From: an uncultured bacterium
GTDB lineage: Bacteria > Oederibacteriota > JAAXVQ01 > JAUVAV01
NCBI GenBank assembly: GCA_963710755.1
Contig: CAVQBK010000013.1
Coordinates: 369,872-433,871 of the forward strand
Length of the DNA: 64,000 bases
Direction: 5' to 3'
Under the pieces are notes generated by a model. The model was given only the letters and a program-made list of their open reading frames with translations. It searched no databases and was not told the origin of the DNA. Positions 1 to 31,331 of the stretch are shown one piece after another. Position numbers and translations under genes: made by a program. Position 1 is the stretch's first letter, and every line of letters starts with the position of its first letter.

Positions 1-3000
1 ACGGCATAAGGCTGAACCTGGTTCAGCTCCACTGACCCCAGTCCATGATACTTGCCGTCATCACCATAAGCTGGTGAGGTACCCCAAGCCTGATAGCCAT
101 GGGCTTTGGCATAGGCTTGAAACACGCCGCCCATTTCCTCCAGCATTTGCAAAGCCTTGCCGTCGCGGATGAATATATTGGGCAAGCTGTAGAAAAAGGC
201 CGCCATATTTTCCGTGCCGCCGCCGCCATAACGGGGGATGGTGAAGCCCATGATGGTTTCCTGCGGCACATGGGCATACCTGACCTGATTGTAAGCAGAA
301 GGCTGCAGGGCACCGGCCATAATGGCCGCCAGATAAGCCGAGCTGTTGTCCGTAGGGCCTTCCAGGATCCAGCTTCTGTTCCAGGGATCGAGGTGACCTT
401 TTCTGATGGCCTGCCAATCGTCAGTAGTCAGGCCTTCTTTAGTGCCGCCCAGCAGGCGCCCATTTTCAGTGACCACTTTATCCCATTGGTACCGTCCGGC
501 AATGGTAGCGGCCAGTTCGGTGACCTCTTGGTTGATACCCGCATGCTTGAGCCATTGCAGCGCCAAGGCCAGATTGCCTTCATCAATAATGCTGTTCTTG
601 ATTTTAACTTTACCGTTTGCTTGTTCCGCCGATGGAATGCCTTGCCTATCCCTCACATTCAGCCAAGCCCAGGTAAAGGGGAACCCGTAAAGATTATATT
701 TCTGCTGATAGCCATCGAGCATCTTCAAGGCCTTCATCAATTGGGCCAGCGATTCTTTACTTTTATTATGCTGATAATCCAAAGCCAGCACCATGAGGCC
801 AATGCCGATGTTGCTGGTGCTGGTGTGGCCTGCCAGCGCGCCATTGCGGTTGTTACGATTATCTACCGGCCAGCCGGTGTTGGGATCGATGAGAGACTTG
901 AAATCCCTGATCGCCTTGGCTTGCAATTGTTGGACAACCTTTTTTCCCTGAGCAGTTAATCTTTGGTAGGTATACGTTTGGGTCGTGGAAGTCCCTTTGG
1001 CAAAACTTTGATTGACCCCTCCGGTCCAGGGGCTGACCGTCAAGCTGAGGCTGAGGAGCAATACTCCAAAAAGTCCGAGCATGCGATGCCACCAGTGCTT
1101 TTTCGACTGGTCTTTACCCGGTGACAGCGCTGTGCCATTAGCCAAGGGAAGTTGATTTAAAATGGCGTTCCCCTCTTCCAAACGTTTAATGGTCAGCGAT
1201 TGGGGTAAGCCCAATTGGTCGCTGAGCTTGTCTATTTGTTTGAGCATGGCCAGATAACGATATCCTCCGATTTCGCCCTGCATGGTATGGCCACCCACCC
1301 AAAAAACAGTTTGTCCTGTTAAATAATGAAGCAGCATCATCCATTGCACATCGCGAGAGGCAATAGCATCCAAAATCTTCTTTATCCGGCGTTGGGTGTA
1401 CCGATCCTTGAAGTCCAATGGCTTTTCAGTATTTTTGGGATCCTTATTCTCCAGGATATTTTCCAAGTCATTAAGTGAGAGTTGATGGAGTTCTATTCCT
1501 AACCGCTTCTTTAAAAGATCATCCAAATGCAATTCCCTGGCCATGGCCATGATGCCCTCCACGGTGCCCGTGAAAGAAGCGCTTTGGCCTGGAAACGCTT
1601 GTTTGGACGTGGCTAGTCTATGGAGCCCTGAGCTGTTGAGGGTAAAGCCGCCGCTGTGGGCAAGGCTTGCTTGGAATTGGCCTTGTCGAAACAAACCGGC
1701 CCTCAAACGTTCCCCAAAGTTCACCACCATGCCCGACACCTCCTCTTTTTTGGAGGTGGCAACAGATTCAACTTCAGGTGTTGGGGGGCGGTTGGTCCAA
1801 CCAGACGTTACTGCCACCGGCCGGCCTTTTCCATTGTCACGCCGGAGTGCTTGTGCATGAGTTTTAAAATCAGCAGTGATCATGCGCGCCAGCAGCTTTT
1901 CCTGACGGCGGGTTTGTTTTGGTCCCAGTCCCAAAATGTCCACATTCAGGTTCCGTGTCCCATAGCCCATGGCCACGGAACGGGCAAAGAAAGGAATCAG
2001 ATAATAGGAATACAGCGCTTTTTGGAGGTCCCGGTCCGCTACCACGTCAGGATGAGGCAATTCCGCCTCCGCTGATTTGCCCTCAGCTGTGGTGAGCCGC
2101 ACGGTCATGCTTTTACCTGTAGCTTGTACTACCTCCCGTACCGCCTGGGCAGCATCAGCAAAAAAGACGTCATTGTCTTTGCCTTGGCTGAAAATGGACA
2201 AGGCCTGCCCAATGGTTTTCCCAAAAATCGGCGACAGATTATTAAGGTCGGCACCCCTGGCATAAGCATGCCATATGGCTTGCTGATCCATCGCCTGCCA
2301 CTCACCCTTTTCATTGGCGTATTCCATTTCAACGCTATAGGCCCCCGGACGGGAAGGTTTCCAGCTTATCTCCCAGACCGACAAGTCCTGAGGCAACCCA
2401 TGCGCAAGCGAAGCCTCCGTGGCCTTGATTGGTTTGGCCTTCAAGATGCCGGCGACTTGCTGACCCTGTTCCTCTTTAACCACATAGCGAACACCTTTAC
2501 AGTCTTTGGGAAGAAAAACAGCGAGATGAAATTTTTGCCCTATTTGGGCCATCTGGCGCTGTCCCTGGTCCAAAGGCGGATCAAAGGCTGGTAAAAATAA
2601 TCGGTGTTGCAACAGTTGCGCCAGACGCTTTTCCTGGTCACTTAAATCTTCGAGTTTTTCACCTCTGGCAATAGCCAAAGCACTCTTCTCTGCCACACCT
2701 TCAGCCGCAGCCCATAAGTCCAGAATGTCCTTGGTATACGTCTGAATATCCCCGCGTCCTGTTTGCTTTAACAAGCCCTGGATAAAGGTCAACTTTTGAA
2801 GTAATTCAATTTCTTCTCGTGTCCTGCTATTTTCACCTCCCAGGAGCGCATTGAGCCGTTCCACGGTGATATGGTGAGGCAGACGAATGTCAAATTTTCC
2901 GGCATGGGCATTGGGGTCATTGATACGGAATTGAGGCGGCAGGTTAAAAAGTCGGAAGCTGAAAGCAAAGCCAAGCCCGCCCGGCTGCTCAGCAGACGCC

Positions 3001-3053
3001 AGAGGTAAGCCCCATGCACCTGTTCCGCTACTTCCGGACTATCCAGATCATGG
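1..3053 (-). CDS. 3' portion of a giant multidomain gene, read in a different frame from ORF 2789..13159. It holds the C-terminal end of the GH77 domain, about 580 aa of unassigned sequence, an internal hydrophobic segment and a six-hairpin glycosidase-like (DUF3131/GH144-like) domain. It runs off the window start with no stop.
   Basis: Hand translation of the reverse strand (codon high coordinate = 2 mod 3) is open from 3053 to 1 and protein-like throughout. Segments read: '...FRINDPNAHAGKFDIRLPHHITVERLNALLGG...' (GH77 C-terminal R-x-N-x-P-x9-R-L motif); '...DVQWMMLLHYLTGQTVFWVGGHTMQGEIGGYRYLAMLKQ...'; 'MLGLFGVLLLSLSLTVSPWTGG' (about 1082..1020); and '...LIDPNTGWPVDNRNNRNGALAGHTSTSNIGIGLMVLALDYQ...YNLYGFPFTWAWLNVRD...'. 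It is missing from the ORF track because it has no in-window stop and no ATG near its 5' end. Confidence 0.6.
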
Positions 3054-6000
3054 AGCTCCCCGTCCAGTCCTTCGAAACCATCGGTCTTGAAATCATCGAT
3101 AACCTTTTGCTTGCTTTCCCCGTTCATGGCAGCCCACATGGCGCTGAAGGTCACTGAATCATGGAGTGCGCCCGTAGCCAGCATACGGCTGGGCATGTGG
3201 TCAGGATAATAAGGATTTAGGCGGTCACCCCAGGGCTCGCCCGTAAGCGCGAAGATATAAGGCGCAAAGCCATAAGCCCCGCTGGTCTCCATTTCCGTTT
3301 GTGCTTGGTGGGGCACCACACCCAGGGTTTCATAAACCAGCGTCACACCGAGGGCCTTGGCATAGCGTTCCAGCTCAGCCAATAAGGTCGCCGAGTGGGG
3401 TGTGGGCTTAAAATAACCAAATTGTAACCGGTCCGATTCCTTGGGATCCATGTCAAAAAAATAAGTTTTCCAAAATCCTTGTGCTGATTGTTCATGCCCT
3501 TTTTTCCCTTTGATAGCATCAGCCGGAGTGGTTCGCAGGTAATCCTGCACCCGGGCATCATGTTTGATTTTCTGCTCCACGCTTTGGTATTCCCGGCGCC
3601 AGGGTGAATCTTCAGGTAAGGCTTTGTCGTAATCCTGGCGCGGTACGGTTCGGGCAATGTAAATGGCATTATCAGGACCGATGCGGCCATGTTCATTCAT
3701 CAGCCAGTGCAAGGCATCAGCCGGTAATTGATTTTCCAAGTTGGCTGGCAATTGACGGCGCCACTGTTTTAATTTGTCCATATAGAGCGCTTGGGCTTTG
3801 TCGGCCGCGGCCTGGCGCAAGCGCTCCTGCTCTTCGTTGTCCGCTGCAGCCGATATGGCTGCCATGGCTTCTTGGCGTATGGCCATCATCTCCTTAAAAA
3901 TCCCCAGGTCTTTCCAGGTCACATCACCTTCCGTGAAATAATAGCTGCGGAACAAGGCGAGTGCATGATCAATACGAATATACCGGCCGTATTTAGCCAT
4001 GGCCTTGATCTGGGCTTTGAGGGCGTCCATGGACTCGGATAAATACATCTGCCAGTATTGGGCATTGGGGTAAGCTTCTTCCGCAGGCACGCCGCGGCTG
4101 ACGAGACGCAGAAAACCGAGCTTCTTTTTCAGCCCATACCAGGCCGGATGTTTCCAGGGATCGGCTTCACTGGGAGCAATACCCTTGTCCACCGCCAATT
4201 CAATGCCTTTGCTGCGGGCATAAGTTTTCAACTCATCATATTGCGCATCCGCGATAAATTGAACAAAGGCCTGAAAAAGAATCTGATCAGCCAGTCTTTT
4301 TTTGGCGTGACGCAAAGATGCCGGTTCCCTGGCCCATAAGCCTTCCTCGCCTGCTTCACATATATCACCTTTCCAGCGCTGCCAGGCCCAGTCGCGCAAG
4401 TCATCCAGTTCATATACTGTTTTCCCTTCCTGCTCCGCTTTTTCCTTAAGCTCATGGCGGCGCTGATTGTATAGGGCCTGAAAATCCGAATTTTCTTGAC
4501 GGCGTTTTTCAGCCAGGACCAGTTGTCTTTCCCTGGTGGCAGGCATGGCCTTCCTATTATTCTTAGACCATGTTTGGAGGACCTCCAGTTGAAGAGTCTC
4601 ACCATCCAGATATTGACCATCTTTTTCCCAGCGGGCCACTTCCTTGGCCATAAATTCTTGTTTGAGCAAATGGTAAAGAAGATCGTCTTCTTTATTCTTC
4701 TTTTCCTTTTTCCAATAAGTCTCAAAGGCTTGGCGCAGGTGCTGATTTTTTTCATTGTCCGGGTAAGCGGCCAAGGCTTGCCAGACCGATTGCAGCACCT
4801 CCAAGGTCAAGGCCCGTTTCTGATCATATTGGGCCCGTTCAGCCTGACGCCACTTTTTGACGGCATCATAATTAAAAACTAATTTCCCTACTGCTCGCGG
4901 AGCATAGACGTGATTAAATACCCAGGGCAGATTGATAAATTTGGGATCCTTCATTTCCTCGCTTTCATAGGCATAGGGCGAGTTGCCGATAGGCGGCCAA
5001 AATAAACTTTCCATCATCATGGCTTTAAAGCCCATTAGTTTATGAAAATCCACCACCTTTTTCATGAGGATCAAATCCATGATCCCCATGTCCTCTTGTG
5101 AGCGCCAATGGAAGAGATAATCAATAGTGGCCACCACATTACGTAAGCCGGCCCGCGCCGGGGAAATAAATTTTTGGTAGGGGAAGAGTTTTCGATACAA
5201 CGCATGGTGGGTGATGGCGCCGGCCAGATAAACCGCGCTACCAGTCAGGCTGGTGGCAAGGATATGGTGCGGGGCCAACATCAGCACGGTTAGGCCGACC
5301 ACAGCGGACAGCCCAAGGCTTACGGTAATTTTAATGAAATTTAAACGGATTTGTTCTGTTTGATCCGAAGAGGCTGGAACTTCTTTATGCTCTGTTTCAT
5401 CCCAAATGGTGGTATGCAGGAATGCAAACAAGGGCTTGATGGCCAAATCATACACCCCGTAAGCCAATGCCAGCGATGCCGCCAACGCCGCCAGGAACCA
5501 GCCCGTCCCCACGCCGAGTACCACCGCTATAATAGCCGGCGCCATGGTTGCTCCCAGCAGGGTAAAGAGCATCATATTCTCAATCTGCTCAGCTATGTCC
5601 AGCTCCACTTTATCCGACAAACGCCCAAAGGTAAATTTGTGCACCCAGGCTTTGATTTTGGGACTGGTCAGGCGGGGCGATTCTTTTTCCGGCTCAACAG
5701 CACCTGAGCTGAAAGCAGCCGCCAAGTCAGGATCTTGGCGCAAGGCCAACAAAACCTGTTCCGGTTCCAAGCGGGCATTAATCATTTCCAATATGAGTTG
5801 CCGCTGGATTTCATTAAAACGTTCATTGTGGGTTTCTTCGCCATGACCTTCGCGCAAATGGGCATTTTCATGCACCAACGTTTCCATAATATCGTACAGC
5901 TTGGCATAATCTTCCTGCGTGGTTGATTGGTGGTTCATAAACCGGTTCATCCAAGCGAGCCAATCGCCAATGCTATTTTGGTTAAAATTAATCCAGTCAG

Positions 6001-9000
6001 GACCATAGAAGGCTATGCGTTTCGTGGAAACCGTCATGAACCCTACTTTATAAGGACCATAGCCATGGGTCTGCATCAAAGGCTGCATAAGATCCTGACA
6101 AAGTTTGGCCAAAGCATGATGCGCTGCGGTGAGCTCGCTTTCACGCAGAGGCGTGGGCCGGTCATCCTCAATCGTCACTTGTCCAAATCCTTGGTGTTGT
6201 GGCTTTTGTGCTTCTTTCAGCAACAGGGCAAAGGGTTCACTTAATTCTTTCAGGTCCACTGGGCTGTCACGGCGGTCGGCCTCAACCGCCATACAATGGA
6301 GATCGTAGAGGGAAAGTTTTTTACCCTCACCAGGTTGTTGGACTTTTATTCTGGTGAGCAGTGTGGTGAGTTGATCCGAATTCTGAATAAACTGAACTTC
6401 CCGGTCAGTCAAATCTTCCCACCGTCCCTGATTAAGCTTACCGGCCAGAGTCTCAGTAGAAATGTAATGACGGACCAAATGATCATATTTGTACACCAAA
6501 TCCAATGGCCGGTCATAATTCAACGTTGCTGCCGCGGTCTCCAGCACCGCGGCCAGGATTGCTTTTTGCAGTCGTGGCAAATATTTTTCCGTCTCCGCCA
6601 GCCCGCCCCGTTCCCGGTCGGTTACAATGGAATAAACATGTTGTTTGAGGCTGACCGGCAGGCTGAGGCTCAATCCTTGTGTTTTGAGCATGTCTTTTAG
6701 CGCTGCCGGCACCAAGGCCCACAATTCAGGGTATTGATTCAAGTCCATGACAAAATAGCCGGCCTGCAACACGCCTGTTTTCCCGGAAGCCCGTTTAACC
6801 ACTTTGATCTTTTCCTGGTCCTGCCAGTCCACCTCAGCCAAGAGGGCCGCCTGTTCCGAAATATTACGGCCGTTGAAAGTAATGGTCAGCCTTCTTTTTT
6901 CATCAACCGACCCCAAGGTGCCCGCGTAGAGTTGCAAACTGTCGCCAATAATAGCTGTTTCCAAATCAATGCCGTCTTGATTCTGTTCATAATCCCCGGG
7001 GTACTCCTTGATCCAAGTATCGACGCGGGTACCTTCAAACTGGCCTTCAAACTCTGCGAAGCGCTCAACCTCCCAGGTAAAACCGCCTTGGCCATTGGGT
7101 ATTTTTCGGACCTCCAAAATTTGAAAGCGGCCACTGCCTGATTTTCCGGAGATCACACGAACCCGGTCCGCGACCGTAAGATTTTTGTACCATCCCCGGC
7201 CGTAATATCCTTTGGAGGGATCAGCGCCTTCTTTCGCACCGGTCCTATCCAAGGGAAGCAGGAAGTTCAACATATCTTCCGTATCCATGCCAATGCCATA
7301 ATCGCGGGTGCTTAGCACCAGTTGGGTTTTGCCTTTGGTTTGAACCGGCACGGCTGTGACTTCGATGCGTTGGGCTCCGCCCTTTTCCAAGCTGGCTTTA
7401 TCCGCATTTTGAATGTTCTCTCTTATCCATTCATAACCTTTTCCCATGCCGCCGCGCGCGATGTCTTCTTCCGTTTGAGCGTAAGCCTCATTGCCTTTAA
7501 GCGTTTGCTTTAAAGCCGCCACACTTTGAAAGATCCCCAAATTGCGGCGCACCCCGGCCAGCACTGAAAGTCTAATTTTTTTAATAACGTCCAAGCTACG
7601 GCCCCGCGGCAGGTTCAATTGGCGTGGGCTCAAATCTTCCATATCAACATCGCCGCGCAAATAGCGGATCAAAAAGGCGCCTTCAGCAATTTCATCCGGC
7701 CCGGTCTCTGGGGACAACCATTCCCAATGAGATTGCAAGCCTGTAATCATTTCAAAGCCTCTGTCCTCTCCTGCCTCCCCTGCAGCTATTACATGCAACC
7801 AACGATCCAAAACTTGATTAAAATACAGGTTATCGCTTACCACTTGCCCCAACCCATCAAGCAACTGGCCCACGGCCCTATGATGCTGCCGGAATAACCT
7901 ACCGCAGATTTTGCTCAATGTTTCCTGGTTTTGTGGATTAAGACGTTTGATCTCTTGGCCGTCGGCAAAGGGCAGGAGCCAATCCAGTTTTTCCATATCC
8001 GCCGCACTCCAATTGTAGTGGAGCAGATTATTTATAAACCGCGATTTCGCCTCCGGTGACAAGTGGTTATAAAATTCGTCACTCGGCTCAATAAAAGGAC
8101 CGTCGGCAATATTCTTAAACCAATCCAACGGTTGAATGGTGATGGTTTGGTTCTGCTTAAATATCACCAAGTCCGATTTGAGAAGATCAATAAACTCTCC
8201 CTCCAGTCCCGTAAAAATGGCGGTTGATCCCTCCAAACGGAACAACCTTTTTACCCCCCACTCCCCGATAATGGCATAATTGACGCCGCCAATGGAAAAA
8301 GGATTCCATGCATCGGGGATATTGCTCATGTTCTCAACGTGGGTAAAATACCCATCACTTAAATGAAACAAACTCCAATGCCGTCTATGCTTGAGCCACA
8401 TATAGATTTCACTGCCCACCTGCACGGGGTTGGTGGCTTTCTCCATCTCGCCCAATTCCTTAACCGGCTCAAACCGGTCATGAATTAACCGGTATAGCCT
8501 TGTTTCCCCATTTGTTAATGCGCCTAAAATATAAATTTCTTGGCCCACGGCCACAGGTTTATCGTGATATGTAAAAGCAACCTCCGCCAGTTCTTGCACT
8601 TGAACAAAACGCCCCTGAACCAGCCGATATAACCGGGCATCATTTGCTGGGCCGGCAATCTCATAGGTTTCCCCGCCCACTTCCACCGGCGTCCCATACC
8701 CATCCTTATCTTTCAATTCCACAATTTCCACAAACCGTCCGTCAGTTAATCGATAAAAATGCTGCGAATCATCACTTAAACTGGTTAAGTTTACATAAAT
8801 TTGCCCTCCGGCACTTACAGGGATACCAATCTCACGTGCATCCGCCAATCCTTGGGTTAATTCGAACCGTCCATTAGCCAGCCTGAATAAGTAACTGTGA
8901 TGGTCTGAAGAGCCAATGAAAAAAACTTCTTCCCCAATTTGAATAGGGCCCTCTTTAAGGTTTAATCTTCTTAATTCTTGTACCACTTCAAATCTACCGT

Positions 9001-12000
9001 GAGATCGTCTATAAATGATGTCTTCAGCACCTTGCCTAACCGCTACATAAGTTTTTCCGCCTGCCTGACCAATCGGGTATATTATCTGCGCTGGTTTGAG
9101 ATCAGGGACCACTTCGAAGCGACGGCCTGACCATTGATATAAGCTCATGCTGCCCGGCTCGCCGGCGCCTACCAAGATATCTTCGCCCACTTTTTCAGGC
9201 ATTTGGATAACATCCAAGCCGTGAAATTCAGTCAGTTCCGAAAATGCGGAACCAGTCCAGCGATAGAGATCATAAACAATGCCGCGCTGCATCCGTAAAA
9301 ACAAATCACCATCAATTTCCGCCACGTCGTAGCTTTCACCGGCCAATTCGGTTTTGAAAGCATCGGCTATGGAAAAACCATGCACTGCGCAAAAGTCATC
9401 TATCTTCGACAAACGTTCCGCGGCCTTTGGAGCCAGTCCGGTCCGGCCCGACCGGAAATAATTGAACTGCAACAATTGCCGAATATTAACCGGATAATCA
9501 TCAAACTTAAACGTCATGCCCGCCGGTGATGCATCGGCTACGCCCCGGGGGACTGAGCCTCCGGCATGCAGAGTAGCTTCCGTTCCTGGTTTGGTGCCAT
9601 AGCCGGTCCAAACCCCGAAGAGTAAATTCAAGAGCAGCGGGCCTTGCCCCGCTAAGGCTTTATCAACATAGGCATAATAAATAGCCTGGTTTAAAAGCAA
9701 CAGCTTGCCTACCCGGGCAAAGGGGCGTGTCAAGTTGGCGATCCATACCGATTTGCCGCTGGACAACACAGGCTGGGCATCGATGCCTCTTGGATCGAAT
9801 GGGAGCAGTCCCTCCTCAACCGTGAGGGGCTTTTTACCTGCATAGGCCTCGGGTGCGATGGCTTGCTGCTCCATGGCGGGTAAAAAAACATAGTCCATTT
9901 CTTTCAATCGGCTGGCAGCCTGATAAAATCTTTGCCGCAGGTGACGCGCGATATTAAGTTCTTCACCCTTGGTCTTGGTCCGCTGTGATTGCTGTAAGCG
10001 TTCGGCGGCCAGATAAACAGCATTGACCACGGGCATCATGCTTTCCGGATTATTGGAAAAATTTCGGAGCAGATTGTCGGCTACGGTCTGAAAAGCTCTG
10101 GCTGTCACCTCGTCCAGCAGGATTTGCTGGCGTCCCTCCCTTTGATCGCAGGCCGTGGGAAGATCAATCACCACTTCTTGAGCCAAGGCGGCACCTTCTA
10201 TTTCCAAGGTCTCTACTTCCGTGCCACCGACCAGTAAATAAACTTTGCTGGTCTTACCCACGTGCCTGGACCAGTAGTATTCTTCCCCATTGGCGGTCCA
10301 ATCCTCCTGGAGTAATGCCGACTTCAATTGATCACCAGTTCGGTTGGTGGAAACTTCAGGCACCGGTAAGGCTTCCATGAGAGTTGACAATCCTCGGCCC
10401 TCATCAAAAGGGGCCACCCCCTTTCCTGAGTCACGCACATGTAATTCCCGTCCATCCTCGCTCAGCCAATAGCGCACGGCTTTCTCGCCCAACCGATAGG
10501 TTACCGGTTGGCCTGCCTGGTCAAAGGGTGACAAATCATTAACCAGGACTTGGCCGCTTTTCCCCTGGAAGATGAGACCGCGCCGCGAGGTACCCAGCTT
10601 TTTTCTGATGTAGTTTTCCAGACGCTTGCCATCCAAGGGCTGCTGGCGGTGCAGCACCACCTCGGTGCCCGGGCCCTGGGTGGCTAACAGGGATTCGTGA
10701 TAAAAATTAACCCGGATGGTACCTCTTGTTTTTACGAATACTGCTTTGTAGCGCGTACGTCGTTCCTTATCAGGTATAGTGATAAACTCCAGGCGGTCGC
10801 CTTCGTTCTGCAAGAGCCCGATGGCTTGATAGACACCGCGGCCAAAGCGGCCAATAGCGTCACCCATGGCGTCAAAGCCATTGTTGATCAATTCCACCAA
10901 AGCTTGATCAGCCGTGGTGGATTGGCGTTTCATGAGCGTATCCAAGCGTTCCGGCTCAAGAGGAAATCCTTCGGCCATGCATTCCCGGGCAAGGTCTACA
11001 AAAACAGGCCCAATGCCTTCCTTGGGCTGCGAAGTCTCAAGGGCTTTGATAAACCGTTCCCGATAGGCTCGCTGTTTTTCTGCTGGCAAATCACGCAAAT
11101 GCTTGATGAGACTGACATATAGAGCAAGATCATAGCCGTCTTTGGTGTAGAATTGTGATGGGGATTGCTTCTCGGAAAGTTTAGCTTTGGGCCGTCGCGG
11201 TAAAACCCATTTAACTAAAATTATCAGTGCCAATAAGATCGCCGCGGTCCAAGTTGCCTGGCTGGTCAGACCGCCTGCCAAAGGTGATTCCCAAAGCGGG
11301 ATGTGAGGTAAAAAACCCGTGGTTCCGGCCATCAGCAATGAAGCCGGTGACAACGCCGGCAGAGGCCCTTGTAATTTTATTTTCATGGTTACCCAGGCTT
11401 GCTGCAAAACCCTGCTTAGGGATTCCAGAAATGCACTCGGTGCATGCAAGTTGATTTTTTCATAAGCCGATTGATCGGCAAACACCGCCGCATAATGCTG
11501 ACCGGGCAGCGCTTTCAAAACGACTTCAGCACCGGGCTCAAGTCCATACGCTTGCAGCGGCCGGTTGGCCACCACGACTATTTTTTCTGCTTCACCAACC
11601 TTGGCTAGAAAAGCACGGACGCCTTTAACCGGCGCCTTTAATTCCTGCCATTGCGTAATGTCAAAGCTCAGTGCCTGTTGAGCGCTGACTTTCATGGCCT
11701 CTGCACTGGCCGTGGAAAAAAGCAAGGTTCCCCAAGCCATGCGTTTAAGTTTATTGACGGCCAGGGCTTGCAATTGATCGGCCACAGCCAGAATGGTCTG
11801 GTTTTTAGCCAGCAATTGTTCCAGCGGGGTACGTCGATTCTGCAACAACTCAAAATAAGGATTAACCACGTCCAGACGGGAAACCTGGGGGCGCACCAAC
11901 AAATAAGTAATATTTCGTTTTCGCAATTCCTCACTTACTTGCTCAGTATGAAACCCGCCATTAATCATCACGGCCAGCGATTGCTGCTGCGTCTGCATGG

Positions 12001-13159
12001 CGCTGAGTAGATTATCCACAAATTGCACGCTGCGCTCGTCCGCCAGGTGATAAAATTTCCAAACCTCATCCAGAGCTTGGTCAAGTGACAGAAGGTTTAA
12101 TTCCAAGGGCAGCGGTGACATATTTTTTGGGCTCGTAGCATTAATAAAGTCAAGAAAAGACTGGGTGCGATAGTCGCCGCGATGGCCACGGAAATCAGCC
12201 AGTTCCTGCTGGGTGGCGGAAATATTGAGAAGCTTTTCCATGTTATCGAGGCGGCGGAGGTGCTCATCGAGCTGCTTCTCAAGGTCCGTCGTGTAAAGCC
12301 TGATGCGCAAGGCTTGATCAAGATGATCCAATTCCTGATAGAGTTTTTCCGGATTGGTCTGTGGTCCAAAATAGGTTTGATTCCATTTCAGAAACTGTCG
12401 CACTTGGGGATAGTTGTTGAGGTCCAACCGTTGGCGCCTGGCCTGCCCGTCAAGCTTGGCCGCATAGCCCAGAATATCCAGGTGGCCGTCCCGGTATTTT
12501 TCGCGAATCTGATCCAAGCGTTTAAGTTCCGGTGAATAGAGGGAAGCTTTCAAAGTGCCCAAAGCTTCCCGAAGGTCATAAATCAGACCTTGGGTTTCAC
12601 TATTTAAAAATTGGCGAACCGTCTTTAAGCTTTCCTCATATAAGGCCTGGCTTTCAATGCCTTCCAACTTGACGGGAGCCTGACTGGTTACGGCCACATA
12701 ATCAGCACCACTTAGCCGGCCTTCCTTAACCAAATAATCGCTCACCACATTTCTAATTCTTTTCAAAGGAAAGTTGCGGAGCAAACTAGGATTGACAGGT
12801 CCGCTGGCGCCTTCGATGGCCACCAAATGCAACCCTTGGGTTTTGATCAGGTGTTTCAAGGTGGCGGCAATATTCTTTTGCACTTCATAATTGCAGTGCA
12901 GATCCTGGATGCAAATAACGGTTTTATTCCCGCCTTGAAAGGCGCTCTCAATATGAGCCCATTTCTCCGGCACTGTAACCGCCCGGCCCAGGTGATGAAT
13001 CATCAGCGGCTGTTGGCCGGCGGTGTAGAGCCCTGGCTCAAAGGCCCAACTCATGATAGGAAATAAAAAACTGATGGTTATAATTAAGGTACAGGTTTTA
13101 ATGGCCAACTGTCGGCCACCCTGGCGCCAAGCTAAGATGGACCATAGGAAATTTTTCAT
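2789..13159 (-). CDS. Giant multidomain protein of 3456 aa in this frame. In order it has an N-terminal signal/TM, a TM near residue 640, about nine internal ~43-aa repeats (residues ~1290-1660), a GHKL/Bergerat ATPase domain (residues ~1905-2020, motif IRENIQNADKA...DYGIGMDTEDM), an HExxH site (HENAH, residues 2429-2433), a TM cluster (residues 2528-2660) and a C-terminal GH77 4-alpha-glucanotransferase domain (YGRYIRIDHAL, LVYETLGVV, GALHDSVT).
   Basis: Long ORF with an AGGAG RBS 8 nt upstream of the ATG at 13159. Motifs recognised by eye: GHKL motif I (E-x-x-x-N-A-D-x-A) and a G-rich G1/G2 region; amylomaltase signature RIDH (nucleophile Asp), AEDLG-like YETLG (acid/base) and THD-like LHDS. 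The last ~90 codons of this frame (after ...HGAYLW) look non-native, while the GH77 domain continues in the other frame; see the frameshift finding. Confidence 0.8.
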   Translation of the reverse strand: MKNFLWSILAWRQGGRQLAIKTCTLIITISFLFPIMSWAFEPGLYTAGQQPLMIHHLGRAVTVPEKWAHIESAFQGGNKTVICIQDLHCNYEVQKNIAATLKHLIKTQGLHLVAIEGASGPVNPSLLRNFPLKRIRNVVSDYLVKEGRLSGADYVAVTSQAPVKLEGIESQALYEESLKTVRQFLNSETQGLIYDLREALGTLKASLYSPELKRLDQIREKYRDGHLDILGYAAKLDGQARRQRLDLNNYPQVRQFLKWNQTYFGPQTNPEKLYQELDHLDQALRIRLYTTDLEKQLDEHLRRLDNMEKLLNISATQQELADFRGHRGDYRTQSFLDFINATSPKNMSPLPLELNLLSLDQALDEVWKFYHLADERSVQFVDNLLSAMQTQQQSLAVMINGGFHTEQVSEELRKRNITYLLVRPQVSRLDVVNPYFELLQNRRTPLEQLLAKNQTILAVADQLQALAVNKLKRMAWGTLLFSTASAEAMKVSAQQALSFDITQWQELKAPVKGVRAFLAKVGEAEKIVVVANRPLQAYGLEPGAEVVLKALPGQHYAAVFADQSAYEKINLHAPSAFLESLSRVLQQAWVTMKIKLQGPLPALSPASLLMAGTTGFLPHIPLWESPLAGGLTSQATWTAAILLALIILVKWVLPRRPKAKLSEKQSPSQFYTKDGYDLALYVSLIKHLRDLPAEKQRAYRERFIKALETSQPKEGIGPVFVDLARECMAEGFPLEPERLDTLMKRQSTTADQALVELINNGFDAMGDAIGRFGRGVYQAIGLLQNEGDRLEFITIPDKERRTRYKAVFVKTRGTIRVNFYHESLLATQGPGTEVVLHRQQPLDGKRLENYIRKKLGTSRRGLIFQGKSGQVLVNDLSPFDQAGQPVTYRLGEKAVRYWLSEDGRELHVRDSGKGVAPFDEGRGLSTLMEALPVPEVSTNRTGDQLKSALLQEDWTANGEEYYWSRHVGKTSKVYLLVGGTEVETLEIEGAALAQEVVIDLPTACDQREGRQQILLDEVTARAFQTVADNLLRNFSNNPESMMPVVNAVYLAAERLQQSQRTKTKGEELNIARHLRQRFYQAASRLKEMDYVFLPAMEQQAIAPEAYAGKKPLTVEEGLLPFDPRGIDAQPVLSSGKSVWIANLTRPFARVGKLLLLNQAIYYAYVDKALAGQGPLLLNLLFGVWTGYGTKPGTEATLHAGGSVPRGVADASPAGMTFKFDDYPVNIRQLLQFNYFRSGRTGLAPKAAERLSKIDDFCAVHGFSIADAFKTELAGESYDVAEIDGDLFLRMQRGIVYDLYRWTGSAFSELTEFHGLDVIQMPEKVGEDILVGAGEPGSMSLYQWSGRRFEVVPDLKPAQIIYPIGQAGGKTYVAVRQGAEDIIYRRSHGRFEVVQELRRLNLKEGPIQIGEEVFFIGSSDHHSYLFRLANGRFELTQGLADAREIGIPVSAGGQIYVNLTSLSDDSQHFYRLTDGRFVEIVELKDKDGYGTPVEVGGETYEIAGPANDARLYRLVQGRFVQVQELAEVAFTYHDKPVAVGQEIYILGALTNGETRLYRLIHDRFEPVKELGEMEKATNPVQVGSEIYMWLKHRRHWSLFHLSDGYFTHVENMSNIPDAWNPFSIGGVNYAIIGEWGVKRLFRLEGSTAIFTGLEGEFIDLLKSDLVIFKQNQTITIQPLDWFKNIADGPFIEPSDEFYNHLSPEAKSRFINNLLHYNWSAADMEKLDWLLPFADGQEIKRLNPQNQETLSKICGRLFRQHHRAVGQLLDGLGQVVSDNLYFNQVLDRWLHVIAAGEAGEDRGFEMITGLQSHWEWLSPETGPDEIAEGAFLIRYLRGDVDMEDLSPRQLNLPRGRSLDVIKKIRLSVLAGVRRNLGIFQSVAALKQTLKGNEAYAQTEEDIARGGMGKGYEWIRENIQNADKASLEKGGAQRIEVTAVPVQTKGKTQLVLSTRDYGIGMDTEDMLNFLLPLDRTGAKEGADPSKGYYGRGWYKNLTVADRVRVISGKSGSGRFQILEVRKIPNGQGGFTWEVERFAEFEGQFEGTRVDTWIKEYPGDYEQNQDGIDLETAIIGDSLQLYAGTLGSVDEKRRLTITFNGRNISEQAALLAEVDWQDQEKIKVVKRASGKTGVLQAGYFVMDLNQYPELWALVPAALKDMLKTQGLSLSLPVSLKQHVYSIVTDRERGGLAETEKYLPRLQKAILAAVLETAAATLNYDRPLDLVYKYDHLVRHYISTETLAGKLNQGRWEDLTDREVQFIQNSDQLTTLLTRIKVQQPGEGKKLSLYDLHCMAVEADRRDSPVDLKELSEPFALLLKEAQKPQHQGFGQVTIEDDRPTPLRESELTAAHHALAKLCQDLMQPLMQTHGYGPYKVGFMTVSTKRIAFYGPDWINFNQNSIGDWLAWMNRFMNHQSTTQEDYAKLYDIMETLVHENAHLREGHGEETHNERFNEIQRQLILEMINARLEPEQVLLALRQDPDLAAAFSSGAVEPEKESPRLTSPKIKAWVHKFTFGRLSDKVELDIAEQIENMMLFTLLGATMAPAIIAVVLGVGTGWFLAALAASLALAYGVYDLAIKPLFAFLHTTIWDETEHKEVPASSDQTEQIRLNFIKITVSLGLSAVVGLTVLMLAPHHILATSLTGSAVYLAGAITHHALYRKLFPYQKFISPARAGLRNVVATIDYLFHWRSQEDMGIMDLILMKKVVDFHKLMGFKAMMMESLFWPPIGNSPYAYESEEMKDPKFINLPWVFNHVYAPRAVGKLVFNYDAVKKWRQAERAQYDQKRALTLEVLQSVWQALAAYPDNEKNQHLRQAFETYWKKEKKNKEDDLLYHLLKQEFMAKEVARWEKDGQYLDGETLQLEVLQTWSKNNRKAMPATRERQLVLAEKRRQENSDFQALYNQRRHELKEKAEQEGKTVYELDDLRDWAWQRWKGDICEAGEEGLWAREPASLRHAKKRLADQILFQAFVQFIADAQYDELKTYARSKGIELAVDKGIAPSEADPWKHPAWYGLKKKLGFLRLVSRGVPAEEAYPNAQYWQMYLSESMDALKAQIKAMAKYGRYIRIDHALALFRSYYFTEGDVTWKDLGIFKEMMAIRQEAMAAISAAADNEEQERLRQAAADKAQALYMDKLKQWRRQLPANLENQLPADALHWLMNEHGRIGPDNAIYIARTVPRQDYDKALPEDSPWRREYQSVEQKIKHDARVQDYLRTTPADAIKGKKGHEQSAQGFWKTYFFDMDPKESDRLQFGYFKPTPHSATLLAELERYAKALGVTLVYETLGVVPHQAQTEMETSGAYGFAPYIFALTGEPWGDRLNPYYPDHMPSRMLATGALHDSVTFSAMWAAMNGESKQKVIDDFKTDGFEGLDGELHDLDSPEVAEQVHGAYLWRLLSSRAGLALLSASDFLTCRLNSVSMTPMPMPENLTFVCLTISPWNGSMRSWEVKIAGHEKKLNYFKS

Positions 13160-16588: not shown

Positions 16589-18766
16589 ATGGGACAATTA
16601 CTGGATAAATTCAAAACCCTCAAACAAGAACTGCTCAAGACCCATCATGTAGGTGAAGAAAATAAAATCATCATTCAGGTGGGTTCGGCCACTTGTGAAA
16701 ATGCAGCTGGTGCGCAGGAGGTTCGACAGGAATTTGAAAAACTGATCTCCGCTTCCGGCCGCGAGGATATTCTGATCAAGCAAACCGGATGTACGGGCCG
16801 GTGCTCACGGGAACCCATTGTAGGTGTCTATTTCCCCAATCAATTTCCCCTGAAATATGAAAAGGTCTCTCTGCCCAAAGTCAATGACATCTTTCAACAG
16901 CACGTGCTGGGCGGCCAGCCGGTGGTCTCGCTGATCCTGGACAAAAAAACCAGTCAAATGTATTCCCGAGTGGTGACCTTTGCCTCGCTCTCTACGGTCA
17001 GCACAGCTTCGGCTGAAAAATGGTCCAAACTTTTTCAGGAACGACTTCAAGCTAAAAACTTGCCTCAAGGCTCGGTGCGCAGTTTTACCGGTGGCTGTCT
17101 GGGACTTTATCCCGCCGGCGAGGAAGGCAACAAAGTGGGCATGCTGGTCTTCCCCGAAAAAGTGGTCTATGAGGTGGAAAACGTCGAGGAACTGGACCAG
17201 ATCATCGACTCCCAGTTCGTCAATAGCAAAGTTTATGAACCCCACTTGGCCACTATCGACCCCATGATCAAACGCTTCTTTACCCTCTACGGCGATGTGG
17301 CTTTTTTCAATAAACAAACCCGACTGACCTTGCGCAACAGCGGCATCATTGATCCCGAGTCGCTTAAAGATTACCTGGCCAACGACGGCTTTGAAGCCTT
17401 GGCTCGCGTGCTCGATGAAAAGCAGCCGCAAAAAATCATCGATGCTGTCAAGGCGGCCGGCTTGCGCGGCCGTGGCGGCGGCGGCTTTCCCACCGGTACC
17501 AAATGGCAGATGATGGTGGACAACCCGGACCCTATTAAATATGTTGTCTGCAATGCCGACGAAGGCGATCCGGGAGCTTACATGGACCGCAGCACTTTGG
17601 AAGGCGATCCCTTCAGCGTGATCCACGGCATGGCTATTGGTGCTTATGGTATGGGCGCACACAAAGGTTATATTTATGTGCGGGCCGAATACCCCTTGGC
17701 CATTAAACGGCTGGAAATCGCCATTGACCAATGCCGGGAAGCAGGCCTCCTGGGCGATAACATCTTGGGCTCGGATTTCAGTTTCGACTTGGAAATCCGC
17801 CTGGGTGCGGGCGCCTTTGTATGCGGTGAAGAAACAGCACTCATGCTTTCCATCACCGGCCGGCGCGGCCAACCTCAAATCCGGCCGCCCTACCCAACGG
17901 AAAAAGGGCTGTGGGGTCATCCTACCGTCATTAACAACGTGGAAACCTGGGCCAATATCCCGGTGATCATCCGCCACGGCGCCGATTGGTTTGCCCGTAT
18001 CGGAACGGAAAAAAGCAAAGGCACCAAGGTGTTCGCCCTGGCCGGCAAGATTAAAAACTCCGGTCTGGTGGAAGTACCCATGGGCACTACCTTGCGTGAG
18101 ATCATCTACGATATCGGCGGCGGGGTGGAAGACGGCCGTACACTCAAAGCCATCCAGACGGGCGGACCTTCGGGCGGCTGTATTCCTGCTTCTCTGGTGG
18201 ACACGCCGGTTGATTATGATTCCCTCTCGCAAGCCGGATCCATCATGGGTTCCGGCGGCATGATCGTGCTTGACGACGAAGATTGCATGGTGGCCACTTC
18301 CAAATTCTTCCTCGAATTCACCCAGGAAGAATCATGCGGCAAATGCGTGCCCTGCCGGGAAGGAACCCTGCGCATGTTGGAAATCCTGGAACGCATTACC
18401 GAAGGTAACGGCACCCTGGAAGATTTGGATAAATTGGAACGTTTGGGCAACATGATCAAAAAGACCTCGCTGTGCGGCCTGGGTCAGACCGCGCCCAATC
18501 CCGTGCTGAGCGCCCTTAATAATTTCCGTGATGAATTCGTGCAGCACGTGACGGAAAAGCGTTGTCCCACCCGCAAATGCGCCCAACTGATCCGCTATGA
18601 AATTGATCCGGAAAAATGCACCGGCTGTACACTCTGCGCCCGTCGCTGTCCGGTTAATTGCATTGAAGGTCAGCCTCGGCAGGCCCATAGGATTATTCAG
18701 GAAAAATGTATTAAATGCGGCAACTGCTTTACGGTGTGCAAATTTGATGCGGTGCTGAAAAAGTAG
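16589..18766 (+). CDS. hydB: HydB, the NuoF-like flavoprotein subunit of an electron-bifurcating-type [FeFe] hydrogenase (NADH/Fd-linked), with an N-terminal thioredoxin-like [2Fe-2S] domain and C-terminal 2x[4Fe-4S] ferredoxin.
   Basis: [13 protein letters not shown] (NuoF NADH/FMN site); [11 protein letters not shown] (N3 cluster); N-terminal C-x4-C...C-x3-C; C-terminal [12 protein letters not shown] / [11 protein letters not shown]; sits immediately upstream of hydA. Confidence 0.9.
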
Positions 18767-18884
18767 GGGGTTGACATGTTGAACCCCTATTTGAATATAC
18801 ATTATACAAAAAGGACGCCGTCGGCAGCTTTGGCGAGTTGAATTATTGCTGACGCAGATTTTTTAAAAAGGACGTGAAGCCATC

Positions 18885-20642
18885 ATGAAACAAGTGACTT
18901 TAACTATTGATGATTCGATCATAACGGTGCCGGAGAAAACCACTATCATGCAGGCGGCTCAAACCATTGGTATTCATATTCCCCGTTTGTGTTATCATCC
19001 TGATTTGTCCATGGAAGGCGCCTGCCGTATTTGTATCGTCGATGTGGAAGGATCGAGAACCTTTCAGACGTCTTGCTCCACCGAGGTGCGTGAAGGCATG
19101 AAGATCAAAACCAATTCTCCTGAGATCCGGCAAGCACGCCGTGATTTGGTGGAGCTGATTCTGGACAACCATCCCAAAGAATGCCAGACCTGCGAACGTG
19201 ATGGGCAATGCGAATTGCAGGATCTGGCCTATGCTATGGGTGTGCGGGAACGGCTGTTCGAAGGCAAACGCAAGCGTTTCGAAAAGGATGACTCCAGCCT
19301 GTCCGTGGTGCGTGATTCGGAGAAATGCATCCTCTGCCGTCGTTGCGTACGGGTCTGCAGTGAAATCCAGAGCGTCCACAATCTCCAACAGATGCATCGC
19401 GGCGTTAAAACCCTGGTAACCCCTGCTTATGAAGCGGACATGAAGGATTCGGTCTGTATCAATTGCGGCCAATGTATTAATGTCTGTCCCACGGCCGCGT
19501 TTTTAGAAAAACGGGAGACGGACAACGTGTGGGCAGCCCTGGCTGATCCCAGCAAACATGTGGTGGTGCACATCGCGCCCTCCATTCGTGCGGCCATTGG
19601 TGAAGGGTTCGGCCTAGCGCCGGGAACACCGGCCACCAAACAAACCGTGACCGCCCTGAGGCGTCTTGGGTTTGACCAGGTCTTTGATACTAATTTTGGA
19701 GCAGACCTGACTATTTTAGAAGAAGCGCACGAATTTGCCCTGCGGCTTAAGGCTAATACCAAGCTGCCCCTGCTAACCTCCTGCTCGCCGGGATGGATTA
19801 AATTTCTGGAACATTTTTATCCTGAACTCATTCCCAACGCCTCTTCCTGCAAGTCCCCCATGAGCATGCTTTCGGTCCTGCTCAAGACCTTTTACGCGGA
19901 AAAAAACAACCTCAAACCGGAAGATATTTATGTGGTGGCCATCATGCCTTGCACGGCCAAAAAATACGAAGCCCAACGGCCGGAGCATCAAATGACCGAA
20001 AGCCTGCCCTATACAGATGCAGTGCTGACCACCCGTGAGCTGGTGTGGATGATCAAGGCCTATGGCATTGACTTTACCCAACTGCCGGAAGAGGACTTTG
20101 ACAATCCCCTGGGCTTTTCCTCCGGCGCGGCTGACATCTTCGGCACCACCGGCGGGGTTATGGAAGCTGCCTTGCGTACCGCCGCAGAGAAACTGACCGG
20201 CAAGCCGCTGACCCACCTCGATTTCAAAGAAGTGCGGGCTGTGGAAGGCCTGAAGGAAGCTTCCTTGGAAGTGGGCGGCACCACCCTGAACGTGGCCGTA
20301 GCCAACGGTCTGGGCAACGCCAAGAAAATCCTGGACAAGGTCAAGAGTGGAGAAAAGCAATACCATCTTATCGAGATCATGGCCTGTCCCGGCGGCTGCA
20401 TCGGCGGCGGCGGCCAGCCCTATCCGCCGGAAGGTCACTATGTATTGGATAAAGAGATTATTAAATTGCGCGCCCAGGCCCTGTACACCATTGACGAGAA
20501 GAAGCAGGTGCGTAAGTCTCATGAAAATCCCTATATCAAAGAACTGTACACCAACTTTTTAGGAGAACCGGGAGGAGAAAAGGCCCATCGTCTGCTTCAT
20601 ACCACCTATGCCCCCCGAGAACCGAGAGGTATCAACCAATGA
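18885..20642 (+). CDS. hydA: [FeFe]-hydrogenase catalytic subunit HydA. It has the CpI-like M3 architecture: a 2Fe-2S ferredoxin-like domain, a His-ligated 4Fe-4S cluster, 2x[4Fe-4S] and the H-cluster domain. Its L1 motif is the variant TSCSPGW.
   Basis: CYHPDLSMEGACRIC; HPKECQTCERDGQC; CILCRRCVRVC; CINCGQCINVCP; L1 'TSCSPGW' (19776..19796, Ser codon tcg at 19785..19787); L2 'MPCTAKKYE'; L3 'EIMACPGGCIGGGGQP'. Confidence 0.92.
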   Translation: MKQVTLTIDDSIITVPEKTTIMQAAQTIGIHIPRLCYHPDLSMEGACRICIVDVEGSRTFQTSCSTEVREGMKIKTNSPEIRQARRDLVELILDNHPKECQTCERDGQCELQDLAYAMGVRERLFEGKRKRFEKDDSSLSVVRDSEKCILCRRCVRVCSEIQSVHNLQQMHRGVKTLVTPAYEADMKDSVCINCGQCINVCPTAAFLEKRETDNVWAALADPSKHVVVHIAPSIRAAIGEGFGLAPGTPATKQTVTALRRLGFDQVFDTNFGADLTILEEAHEFALRLKANTKLPLLTSCSPGWIKFLEHFYPELIPNASSCKSPMSMLSVLLKTFYAEKNNLKPEDIYVVAIMPCTAKKYEAQRPEHQMTESLPYTDAVLTTRELVWMIKAYGIDFTQLPEEDFDNPLGFSSGAADIFGTTGGVMEAALRTAAEKLTGKPLTHLDFKEVRAVEGLKEASLEVGGTTLNVAVANGLGNAKKILDKVKSGEKQYHLIEIMACPGGCIGGGGQPYPPEGHYVLDKEIIKLRAQALYTIDEKKQVRKSHENPYIKELYTNFLGEPGGEKAHRLLHTTYAPREPRGINQ

Positions 20643-21136
20643 GCAACCAATTGAAGAGCACCCTGGATCAATCTATTCTGGATTTTATTGACGAATGTTT
20701 GCAGCGGGAACATCCCCGCAGCTACTTGATCTCCATTTTAAGCAAAATTCAGGAAAAGTACGGTTATCTTTCGCAGGAGCATATGAACGAGGTGGCTTAT
20801 ACCATGAACATCGCCACTTCCCGGGTTTACGGGGTGGCCACCTTTTATCATTTTTTCAGGCTCACGCCGCAGGGCAAACACAAGATCTCCGTCTGCATGG
20901 GCACGGCTTGCTTTGTCAAAGGTTCGGACCGCATTCTGGAGGCGTTCCGAAGTGAGCTGGGTATTGATTTTGGCGAGACCACTAAGGATGGCTTGTTCTC
21001 CCTGGATAACACGCGTTGTTTAGGCGTCTGTGGATTGGCTCCCGTGGTGACCATCAATGACAAGGTCTATGGTCATGTCACTCCGCAACAAGTACCCGAT
21101 CTTATCAATAAAACCCTGGTGGAAGAATCTAAATAA
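20639..21136 (+). CDS. hydC: HydC, the NuoE-like thioredoxin-fold [2Fe-2S] subunit of the hydrogenase.
   Basis: 165 aa with CMGTACFVKG...CLGVCGLAPV (NuoE/HndA 2Fe-2S motif); a 4-bp ATGA overlap with the hydA stop. Confidence 0.85.
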   Translation: MSNQLKSTLDQSILDFIDECLQREHPRSYLISILSKIQEKYGYLSQEHMNEVAYTMNIATSRVYGVATFYHFFRLTPQGKHKISVCMGTACFVKGSDRILEAFRSELGIDFGETTKDGLFSLDNTRCLGVCGLAPVVTINDKVYGHVTPQQVPDLINKTLVEESK

Positions 21137-27011: not shown

Positions 27012-27431
27012 TCATTTGATCACCGCTACTCTCAATCTTTTTTTAAGCCTTTTACCGTCTATTACCAGCACATATACGCCACTGGCCACCACTTGGCCGC
27101 TGTCGTTTTTGCCATCCCAGAGCGCTTCTTCCTGGGGCAAGGGCACATGCCGTTCCCACAGTCTTCTCACCCGGTAGCCGTCCTGACTATAAACGGTAAT
27201 GGTGGTTTGCTCATATTTGGGTTGCAAGCCCACCACGACGACCTTTCCCTGCATCAGGGGGTTGAAGCGATTACGGTTAAGGGTTACCCGCACAGGAACC
27301 GTTTCCGTGGTGGTGAGAAGGGTAGGGGTGACCGTCACGGTGGCCGTGGGGGTGGGCGTGGCGTTCGCCAAGCCAGCCCAGAGAATGATCAGTATCAGGG
27401 CACCACTCTTTCGCCGCATGAGAACATTCAT
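27012..27431 (-). CDS. Secreted Thr/Pro-repeat protein with a C-terminal FlgD-Ig-like (T9SS-CTD-like) domain.
   Basis: An AAGGAG RBS sits 7 nt upstream of the second ATG at 27431; signal peptide 'MNVLMRRKSGALILIILWAGLANA'; TPTPTATVTVTPT low-complexity run; C-terminal 'YSQDGYRVRRLW...LWDGKNDSGQVVASGVYVLVIDG' matches the FlgD_ig pattern (G..V..L....WDG.d..G...p.G.Y). It is paralogous to the C-terminal domain of 55025..56032. Confidence 0.65.
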   Translation of the reverse strand: MNVLMRRKSGALILIILWAGLANATPTPTATVTVTPTLLTTTETVPVRVTLNRNRFNPLMQGKVVVVGLQPKYEQTTITVYSQDGYRVRRLWERHVPLPQEEALWDGKNDSGQVVASGVYVLVIDGKRLKKRLRVAVIK

Positions 27432-27463
27432 GGTGATCTCCTTTGCCGGCACAGCGCCGGCGT

Positions 27464-28510
27464 TTATTCAATGGTCAGGTTTACCTGATATGTCTCTTGT
27501 TCCGAGCTTTCCCATTTTTCCTGATCCACATAGAAGCTATAGGCTTTGTCGGTGTGCAGGGACCCTTGCATGGGCAACCCTTTGGCCAGATCGAACTGCA
27601 CCCGCCCTTGTATTTTATAATTCCCTTTTTGAAATGTCATTTTATTTAACGACTCCATGTCCAGAGTTTTCTGGAGCTCAGTTAATTCGTCGCCGGTAAA
27701 CATTATGGCGCTGGTACAGTCGATAGAAGCCAGGTTCTGCTGCTGCTGGCGGAAGTAAAACCTGTTGGTTTGCCCCTCTTCCTCTCCCAGAACCATGGTG
27801 GGATCTTCGCTGGAGCTGGTCCAGCGGTCGCCCGGGCCGACGGCCTGGGGTGGAAAGACCGCCATCAGCAGCGGCGGCACCTTAAAGGCTTTAATGATTT
27901 TTTTCCCAATGACCCGGTTACGGCTGAGCAATTCCAGCAGGTCCAGATGGAGTCCCGTGCGTACGGTCTTTTCCTGGTTTTGAGTCAGCTGGTGTCCCTG
28001 CCGGTCGATGACGATCACGGCCAACGGCTGCGTCATTATTTTTTGATATTTTGCGTAAAGCTCCGGACCCAAATAGTCAGCCAGCGTCCATTCGTCATCA
28101 TACCAGGTAAGCCTGCCTCCATCGGGACCCATCTCCAGCCGGCACTTCCCTTTTCCATCATGATTCAGCCGCAAACGTAACAATTTAAATTCAATTTGAC
28201 ATTCTTGTGGGTTGAGCGCCAGAGCCTGCACCTGATAGGTAGCCTTGACGGCCAGATGGGCTTCTTCTTTGGCAAATTGTCTGTGGCCATGGAATTTTTC
28301 CAACCCGGAAAAGGTTTGGTAGGAAGTGGTAACGCGGTAAGTCTGACCGGGTACAAATTGATAACGCAGAATAGTCTTGGTGTTCGACGAGGCCGGCGCA
28401 CAGGCAAGCAGATTGAAGCTTGCCAAAATCAAAGCGCCCAGGCTGGTGCTGCACACCATTTTATGGATGAGGCGTCGTGTCAATATGTTTTTGAAAAAGG
28501 CAATGGGCAC
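27464..28510 (-). CDS. Secreted hypothetical protein, possible lipoprotein; the start may be the Met at 28459.
   Basis: The N-terminal hydrophobic segment ends in 'LLACAP' (lipobox-like); no recognisable domain. Confidence 0.5.
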   Translation of the reverse strand: MPIAFFKNILTRRLIHKMVCSTSLGALILASFNLLACAPASSNTKTILRYQFVPGQTYRVTTSYQTFSGLEKFHGHRQFAKEEAHLAVKATYQVQALALNPQECQIEFKLLRLRLNHDGKGKCRLEMGPDGGRLTWYDDEWTLADYLGPELYAKYQKIMTQPLAVIVIDRQGHQLTQNQEKTVRTGLHLDLLELLSRNRVIGKKIIKAFKVPPLLMAVFPPQAVGPGDRWTSSSEDPTMVLGEEEGQTNRFYFRQQQQNLASIDCTSAIMFTGDELTELQKTLDMESLNKMTFQKGNYKIQGRVQFDLAKGLPMQGSLHTDKAYSFYVDQEKWESSEQETYQVNLTIE

Positions 28511-30048: not shown

Positions 30049-30068
30049 GCCTGCTCCTTAGTGCTCGT

Positions 30069-31058: not shown

Positions 31059-31331
31059 TGCTTTTTGTTTTCTCCCCTTGTCATGGCACACCGCTACCGG
31101 CATGGCCCAACCACCGGCAGATCCTGCCCTTGCCGGAGCTGGAGACGAGTGCACAGGTATTGCCACAGCCTGCCAAGCCGTACTGTCCTGGATTGTACAA
31201 TTCACAACGCTTGTTATTACTATGCTCTCGCTTCCTCCCCGCATTAAAATGCAGAGATGAAGCGAGGTTAAATAAAATAATAGTCTTGCTTTTGCATAAA
31301 ATACTCCGCAATTCCTGGCGGTAAATTTTAT

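Follow-up and report, generated by a model that had tools for sequence, protein, structure and literature searches.

Does a very long gene for a 4-alpha-glucanotransferase lie in two reading frames because it has mutated, because the assembled sequence is in error, or because the frames are joined during translation? The question is raised by the end of a giant gene on the minus strand of a 64,000-nucleotide (nt) stretch of DNA, the whole of which was analysed and which we call the window, from an uncultured bacterium of the Oederibacteriota (contig CAVQBK010000013.1, positions 369,872 to 433,871). A sequence-only reading had proposed that a frameshift inside the GH77 (4-alpha-glucanotransferase) domain splits this gene, and had named three possible causes: a sequencing or assembly indel, a recent mutation or a programmed frameshift. 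We find that the two frames are pieces of one gene, and we lean slightly toward a real, non-programmed deletion of one base.

Two reading frames of one gene

The upstream piece, an open reading frame that we call ORF1 (2789..13159, minus strand), runs from ATG 13159 to TGA 2791..2789 over 3,456 codons and has a GGAG 8 nt 5' of its ATG. Its product ends in ...SASDFLTCRLNSVSMTPMPMPENLTFVCLTISPWNGSMRSWEVKIAGHEKKLNYFKS*, the non-native-looking tail that had been noticed in the sequence-only reading; residues 1-3405 are native, and the last 51 codons (2944..2792) with the stop (2791..2789) are out-of-frame read-through. A second minus-strand frame, -1 relative to ORF1, is stop-free from 3038 to window position 1 (1,012 codons), which, at a chance expectation of (61/64)^1012 or about 1e-21, we infer cannot be accidental. 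This frame had been taken to be open from 3053 to the window start; it does reach position 1, but stops at 3050..3048 and 3041..3039 put its opening at 3038, and the two frames overlap over 2789..3038 rather than 2789..3053. The joined gene comes to at least 4,386 codons within the window (13,159/3), not the 4,480 first claimed, and runs past the window start. Downstream of the junction the second frame reads ...NLPPQFRINDPNAHAGKFDIRLP..., and this downstream piece (1..2945, minus strand) is stop-free for 981 codons up to the window start, beyond which it continues. It contains the end of GH77, a conserved immunoglobulin-like (Ig-like) module, a region common to ROK-like proteins (P0027 and P0035), a transmembrane segment and a glucoamylase-like C-terminal region resembling P0048 (PF10091). 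When codon usage was scored by a log-likelihood trained on long genes of the window, the ORF1 frame was favoured as far as about 2980, and from about 2950 on the second frame was.

The GH77 domain, which has large insertions, lies across the junction (2877..4507, minus strand), with residues 2885-3405 in the first frame and 3406-3428 in the second. Within ORF1, the Pfam GH77 profile (PF02446) matches residues 2885-3406 and ends at profile position 437 of 465; with the frames joined as ...SASDFL|NLPPQFRINDPNAHAGKFDIRLP..., the match reaches 460 of 465, and the score is 120.7 bits as compared to 110.5 for ORF1 (gain about 12 bits; Pfam gathering cut-off 25), only profile positions 105-460 being matched. 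In the single-ORF homologue P0002 the match also ends at 460 of 465. The catalytic motifs RIDH (3982..3959), YETLG/ETLG (3337..3314) and LHDS/HDS (3172..3149) are on the minus strand in the first frame and the C-terminal motif RINDPNAHAGKFDIRLP (2927..2877, minus strand) is in the second, each where the sequence-only reading had placed it. Neither frame by itself encodes a complete GH77 domain including the R-x-N-x-P segment, and PF02446, far from aligning in full within 2789..13159, does need the alternative frame. RIDH fits the R-[IL]-D-H of all homologues, and we take it, from established GH77 knowledge, to hold the nucleophile; ETLG corresponds to EDLG and HDS to HDN of the plant enzyme DPE1. 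Three chains of the PDB (1tz7, 5cpq and 9m80) align across the junction: in Aquifex amylomaltase (1tz7), 'SRAKFAIIQMQDLLNLGNEARMNYPG' pairs with 'SSRAGLALLSASDFLNLPPQFRINDPN' of the joined frames, and plant DPE1 (5cpq, 9m80) aligns from ETLG/EDLG via HDS/HDN to 'DILGLGSSARMNTPATEVGNWGWRIP', DPE1 itself reading 'DILGLGSSARMNTP' at the junction as against 'DFLNLPPQFRINDP'. By profile and motifs, the domain is a member of GH77 that is complete only once the frame is corrected.

Searched exhaustively with HMMER, 1.84 billion representatives yielded 59 relatives (37 at E < 1e-10), the best of them 33% identical apart from a self-hit, P0001. The latter, an entry of the public protein library, is identical to the 3,456-amino-acid (aa) ORF1 product and is found on one 530,999-bp contig at NCBI/ENA. 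Most relatives are giant proteins of 1.6-7.2 thousand residues, and the named ones are called '4-alpha-glucanotransferase' and come from metagenome-assembled genomes (MAGs) of Candidatus Omnitrophota and Verrucomicrobiae. About 19 distant homologues, most of them 860-5,900 aa long and the largest 7,244 aa, span the junction at some 25-35% identity; they do so in single BLASTP high-scoring segment pairs that continue about 245 aa into the second frame. When the joined sequence was aligned with 18 homologues using MAFFT, the D-x-x-[GN]-L-x segment was gap-free, and none of the aligned homologues was split at the junction, all being single-frame. The Ig-like module that follows GH77 (HGLP..W..W.P..G.Y ... 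DLNxLSP; DLNPLSP in homologues) is also present in the second frame of the window (2402..2229), and many homologues carry it on one polypeptide with the N-terminal domain of ORF1. This N-terminal domain (residues about 20-460; 11780..13102, minus strand) is common to other giant GH77 proteins and is 42% identical to the N-terminus of NTV51467.1 from Candidatus Firestonebacteria. With a 739-aa query spanning the junction, a word-indexed protein search, a GTDB genome scan and a JGI metagenome scan each returned no relatives; homologues came from the HMMER search only. Since profile, homologues and the DPE1 and amylomaltase structures all span the junction, the proposed frameshift inside GH77 holds, and ORF1 and the second frame are confirmed as two pieces of one gene.

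The family to which the broken gene belongs (window 1..13159, minus strand; homologues P0002-P0030) consists of giant multi-domain proteins of up to 7,244 aa that have in common an N-terminal domain of about 440 aa ('IQDLHCN...GGFH'), a GH77 core interrupted by long insertions and, after it, the Ig-like module. Members come from MAGs of Omnitrophota, Verrucomicrobiae/Verrucomicrobiota and Firestonebacteria, and Pfam detects only their GH77 part.

The missing base at the junction

The junction reads GAC TTTTT AAC (2943..2953, minus strand). An invariant Asp, encoded by GAC at 2953..2951, is readable in frame 1 only, and the Asn of N-L-P, encoded by AAC at 2945..2943, in frame 2 only. Because five T's (2950..2946) stand between these codons where two codons need six bases, the T5A2 tract at 2950..2944 of the minus strand (A5 on the plus strand, 2946..2950) is short by exactly one base. 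Originally, Phe-Phe (TTTTTT) or Phe-Leu (TTTTTR) probably stood here; an intact 2944..2950 would show six T's or TTTTTAAA. Earlier, the switch had been put within 2925..2950, at 'aattccgtatcaatgacccc' (about 2932..2913) and next to short C-runs. The upper end of that range does touch the true site at 2953..2943; the rest of it lies downstream, as do the C-runs and the quoted letters. A compensating second indel was ruled out, the alignment being collinear in frame 1 up to the Asp and in frame 2 from the Asn.

To an ordinary, non-programmed one-base deletion that is real in the sampled population, recent or segregating, we give about an even chance, and it is toward this reading that we lean slightly. 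Replication slippage would have dropped one nucleotide from T5A2, between the Asp and the Asn of 'D-x-L-[GN]-L', and so produced a loss-of-function variant, very recent or still segregating. Ribosomes starting at ATG 13159 would lose the frame once past residue 3405 and, after 51 unrelated codons, meet the stop at 2789, yielding a 3,456-aa product without the last conserved GH77 segment (R-x-N-x-P...R-L-P) and without at least 981 C-terminal residues; nothing in the sequence restores the frame. With its giant carbohydrate-active protein truncated or null in this way, the population would seem able to dispense with the gene under the conditions sampled. The GH77 barrel of the truncated protein would probably not fold properly, 51 nonsense residues would stand at the end, and the Ig-like module, the region shared with ROK-like proteins, the transmembrane segment and the glucoamylase-like region would be lost.

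No other frame break occurs among the about 50 genes of the 64 kb. Of homopolymers, the window has 410 with at least 5 bases, 138 with at least 6 and 42 with at least 7, and none of the 138 breaks a gene, which favours a real deletion because an error driven by the technology should strike longer homopolymers first. The search for other frameshifts in the window found none; the ORF pairs 22478/22944 and 26913/27199 and the neighbours 27012..27452 and 27464..28510 are separate genes or non-coding shadows. Run ERR11523667 has been assembled independently in Logan, and four contigs of that assembly (L001-L004; 13797-20408, 28947-32810, 39578-50901 and 50878-57275; 28.2 kb in total) agree with the window at 100.000% and show no indel, so the consensus is generally faithful; these contigs were found via neighbouring genes, and none reaches the giant gene. 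A gene of more than 13 kb would also offer a mutational target about 13 times that of an average gene, which we count in favour of a real deletion. The gene does not look like a decayed pseudogene, with one lesion, at least 981 open codons, normal codon bias and conserved motifs.

Several observations weigh against a real deletion. The base count at 2943..2953 is that of the deposited contig alone, and a single contig from a single sample is all that carries the gene. Homopolymers are where consensus errors classically arise, and the lesion lies in one. The downstream frame is intact for at least 981 codons and keeps the family motifs, which an artefact predicts directly and which a real mutation can match only by being very recent. 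These same points speak for an error of the consensus, in which an intact ORF of more than 4,386 codons would have lost one base in T5A2 on the 531-kb contig through a homopolymer miscall or a polishing error; we regard this as quite possible, if short of an even chance. In its favour, moreover, the lesion is the one flaw in a gene of at least 13.2 kb, codon bias persists in the downstream frame, all homologues are in frame, and a metagenomic contig of 531 kb suggests that long reads may have been used. Against it stand the unbroken genes of the window, with their 138 homopolymers of at least 6 bases and 42 of at least 7, and the identity of the 28.2 kb assembled independently. Both the sequencing or assembly indel and the recent mutation offered by the sequence-only reading thus stay viable.

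ERR11523667 is the only public run, apart from the source contig, in which the organism turns up, and a literature search on this run found nothing.

Recoding and re-initiation

Functionally used -1 ribosomal frameshifting, with tRNA-Phe and tRNA-Leu slipping at C_UUU_UUA so that a fraction of the product is full-length and the rest is 3,456 aa, appears highly improbable to us. The shift needed is indeed -1, both frames are intact, and the joined ...D-F-L|N-L... exactly matches a slip on UUU_UUA, the heptamer being one base off the classic U_UUU_UUA. In the zero frame, however, the site reads GAC_UUU_UUA, and C_UUU_UUA is not a canonical X_XXY_YYZ heptamer; its first base, C, would make re-pairing in the P site imperfect through a first-position mismatch. 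Folding energies of -5.1 and -15.6 kcal/mol for the 53 nt and 103 nt downstream of the junction are no better than those of dinucleotide shuffles (z = +0.48 and +1.61) and leave no stimulatory hairpin or pseudoknot there. The 20 nt upstream of the junction, ggctttgctttcagcttcc, hold no Shine-Dalgarno (SD)-like motif of the GGAGG kind, and an Rfam scan of the whole window found no family, and hence no frameshift element. A tRNA search of the window also found none. Every aligned homologue encodes the junction segment in one frame, and the truncated product, short of part of the catalytic barrel, would make no sensible isoform. Programmed frameshifting is therefore not supported: the site fails every testable hallmark and is not a member of that class, and with a non-canonical heptamer, no structure, no SD and no split homologue, the third option of the earlier reading drops out. 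The predicted trans-frame product is ...LLSASDFLNLPPQFR, with the trans-frame tryptic peptide AGLALLSASDFLNLPPQFR as against AGLALLSASDFLTCR in the zero frame.

Speculatively, spontaneous -1 slippage on UUU_UUA could leak some full-length protein. A combination of a real deletion with low-level -1 slippage at C_UUU_UUA_A, which would give a small, tunable full-length fraction and make the junction a recently arisen recoding site, strikes us as very unlikely. Transcriptional slippage, which is known for runs of about 9 or more, was rejected since the T5 run is too short, and a phase-variable homopolymer locus was rejected likewise, the tract being only T5 followed by A2 where typical tracts have 7-8 nt or more.

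That the downstream frame is a separate gene, re-initiated for example at TTG 2792 or GTG 2864, has in our view hardly any chance of being correct. The frame is long and intact, and TTG 2792..2790 overlaps TGA 2791..2789 as TTGA, a geometry of translational coupling, but a T precedes TGA by chance about 1 time in 4. The first start candidate, GTG 2864, lies 27 codons past the junction and is followed by TTG 2792. Neither has an SD sequence, although many genes of this genome carry GGAG or AGGA upstream, and both come after the conserved RINDP motif, which would thus precede every candidate start. Both products would have an incomplete GH77 barrel, and no homologue is split at the junction. The independent start with a ribosome-binding site that the sequence-only reading had allowed for was not found for the downstream frame.

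Neighbouring features and known systems

Elsewhere in the window, ORF 59414..63994 (minus strand) comprises 1,526 codons from its first start, TTG 63994, near the window end, and has no Pfam match. A tandem array at 57246..58105, in frame within ORF 56891..59185 (minus strand; a 764-aa protein with a weak DUF4388 match), consists of about 13 copies of a 63-nt unit at 69% match, with higher-order periods of 126 and 252 nt at 85%; the start of the array coincides exactly with the end of one Logan contig (57275). A perfect 24-nt palindrome, AGGATAAAGCCCGGGCTTTATCCT, at 50878..50901 is intergenic between divergent genes, an HD-domain signalling protein (49384..50742, minus strand) and a PD40/beta-propeller protein (51039..52934, plus strand), and two Logan contigs break there. 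At 29182..31244 (minus strand), a FakA-like protein has Dak2 and FakA middle domains but not the DegV-like domain that is usual at the C-terminus; counted from its first ATG it has 391 aa, whereas the gene call on the Logan contig gives 269 aa. A DegV (FakB-like) gene of full length lies 20 nt downstream in a different frame, and this layout is probably natural. A HydB/HydA/HydC-type [FeFe]-hydrogenase operon at 16589..21136 (plus strand), encoding a NuoF-like protein of 725 aa, a HydA of 585 aa and a thioredoxin-like 2Fe-2S protein of 165 aa, adjoins a gene for class-II fructose-bisphosphate aldolase, and this gene content points to an anaerobic fermentative lifestyle.

For annotation, the two ORFs at the junction should be entered as one frameshifted (or corrected) gene, not as two proteins and not as a case of recoding, which is mostly a matter of quality control; the giant multi-domain GH77 family is a more interesting object than the frameshift itself. 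That a single-base homopolymer indel splits one gene is familiar, and the effect is that of any frameshift null allele or assembly error. With ordinary frameshifted genes ('frameshifted; pseudo') and with consensus errors, the locus shares three things: a short homopolymer changed in length by 1 nt, a pair of long overlapping ORFs that jointly match one family, and the absence of recoding signals. The gene differs from these in being unusually long (over 13 kb), and its assignment to biology or to artefact depends on the reads. Bacterial programmed -1 sites, such as dnaX (A_AAA_AAG), transposases of the IS3 family and the G/GT tail chaperones of phages, resemble the junction in the -1 direction, a U-rich, slippery-looking tract and two open frames. 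In contrast to those sites, the junction has no X_XXY_YYZ heptamer, upstream SD or downstream structure, its split is not conserved, and its zero-frame product is a damaged enzyme rather than a defined shorter isoform. Like the GH77 4-alpha-glucanotransferases MalQ and DPE1 (PF02446; 1tz7, 1cwy, 5cpq), the domain scores far above threshold, has RIDH, ETLG and HDS, and aligns along D-x-L-x-L...R-x-N-x-P...R-L-P; unlike the solved enzymes, it lies inside a protein of more than 4,386 aa, has several long insertions and low identity to them, and is known from sequence alone. Closest in design are giant proteins called '4-alpha-glucanotransferase', among them MBP7216039.1 (Candidatus Omnitrophota, 5,866 aa) and HTL48539.1 (Verrucomicrobiae MAG, 7,244 aa), with which the gene shares the N-terminal domain (as in NTV51467.1), a GH77 core with the same insertions and the Ig-like module. 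Identity to these proteins is about 25-35% (42% in the N-terminal domain) and the other domains vary from protein to protein, but at the position of the junction theirs are single ORFs.

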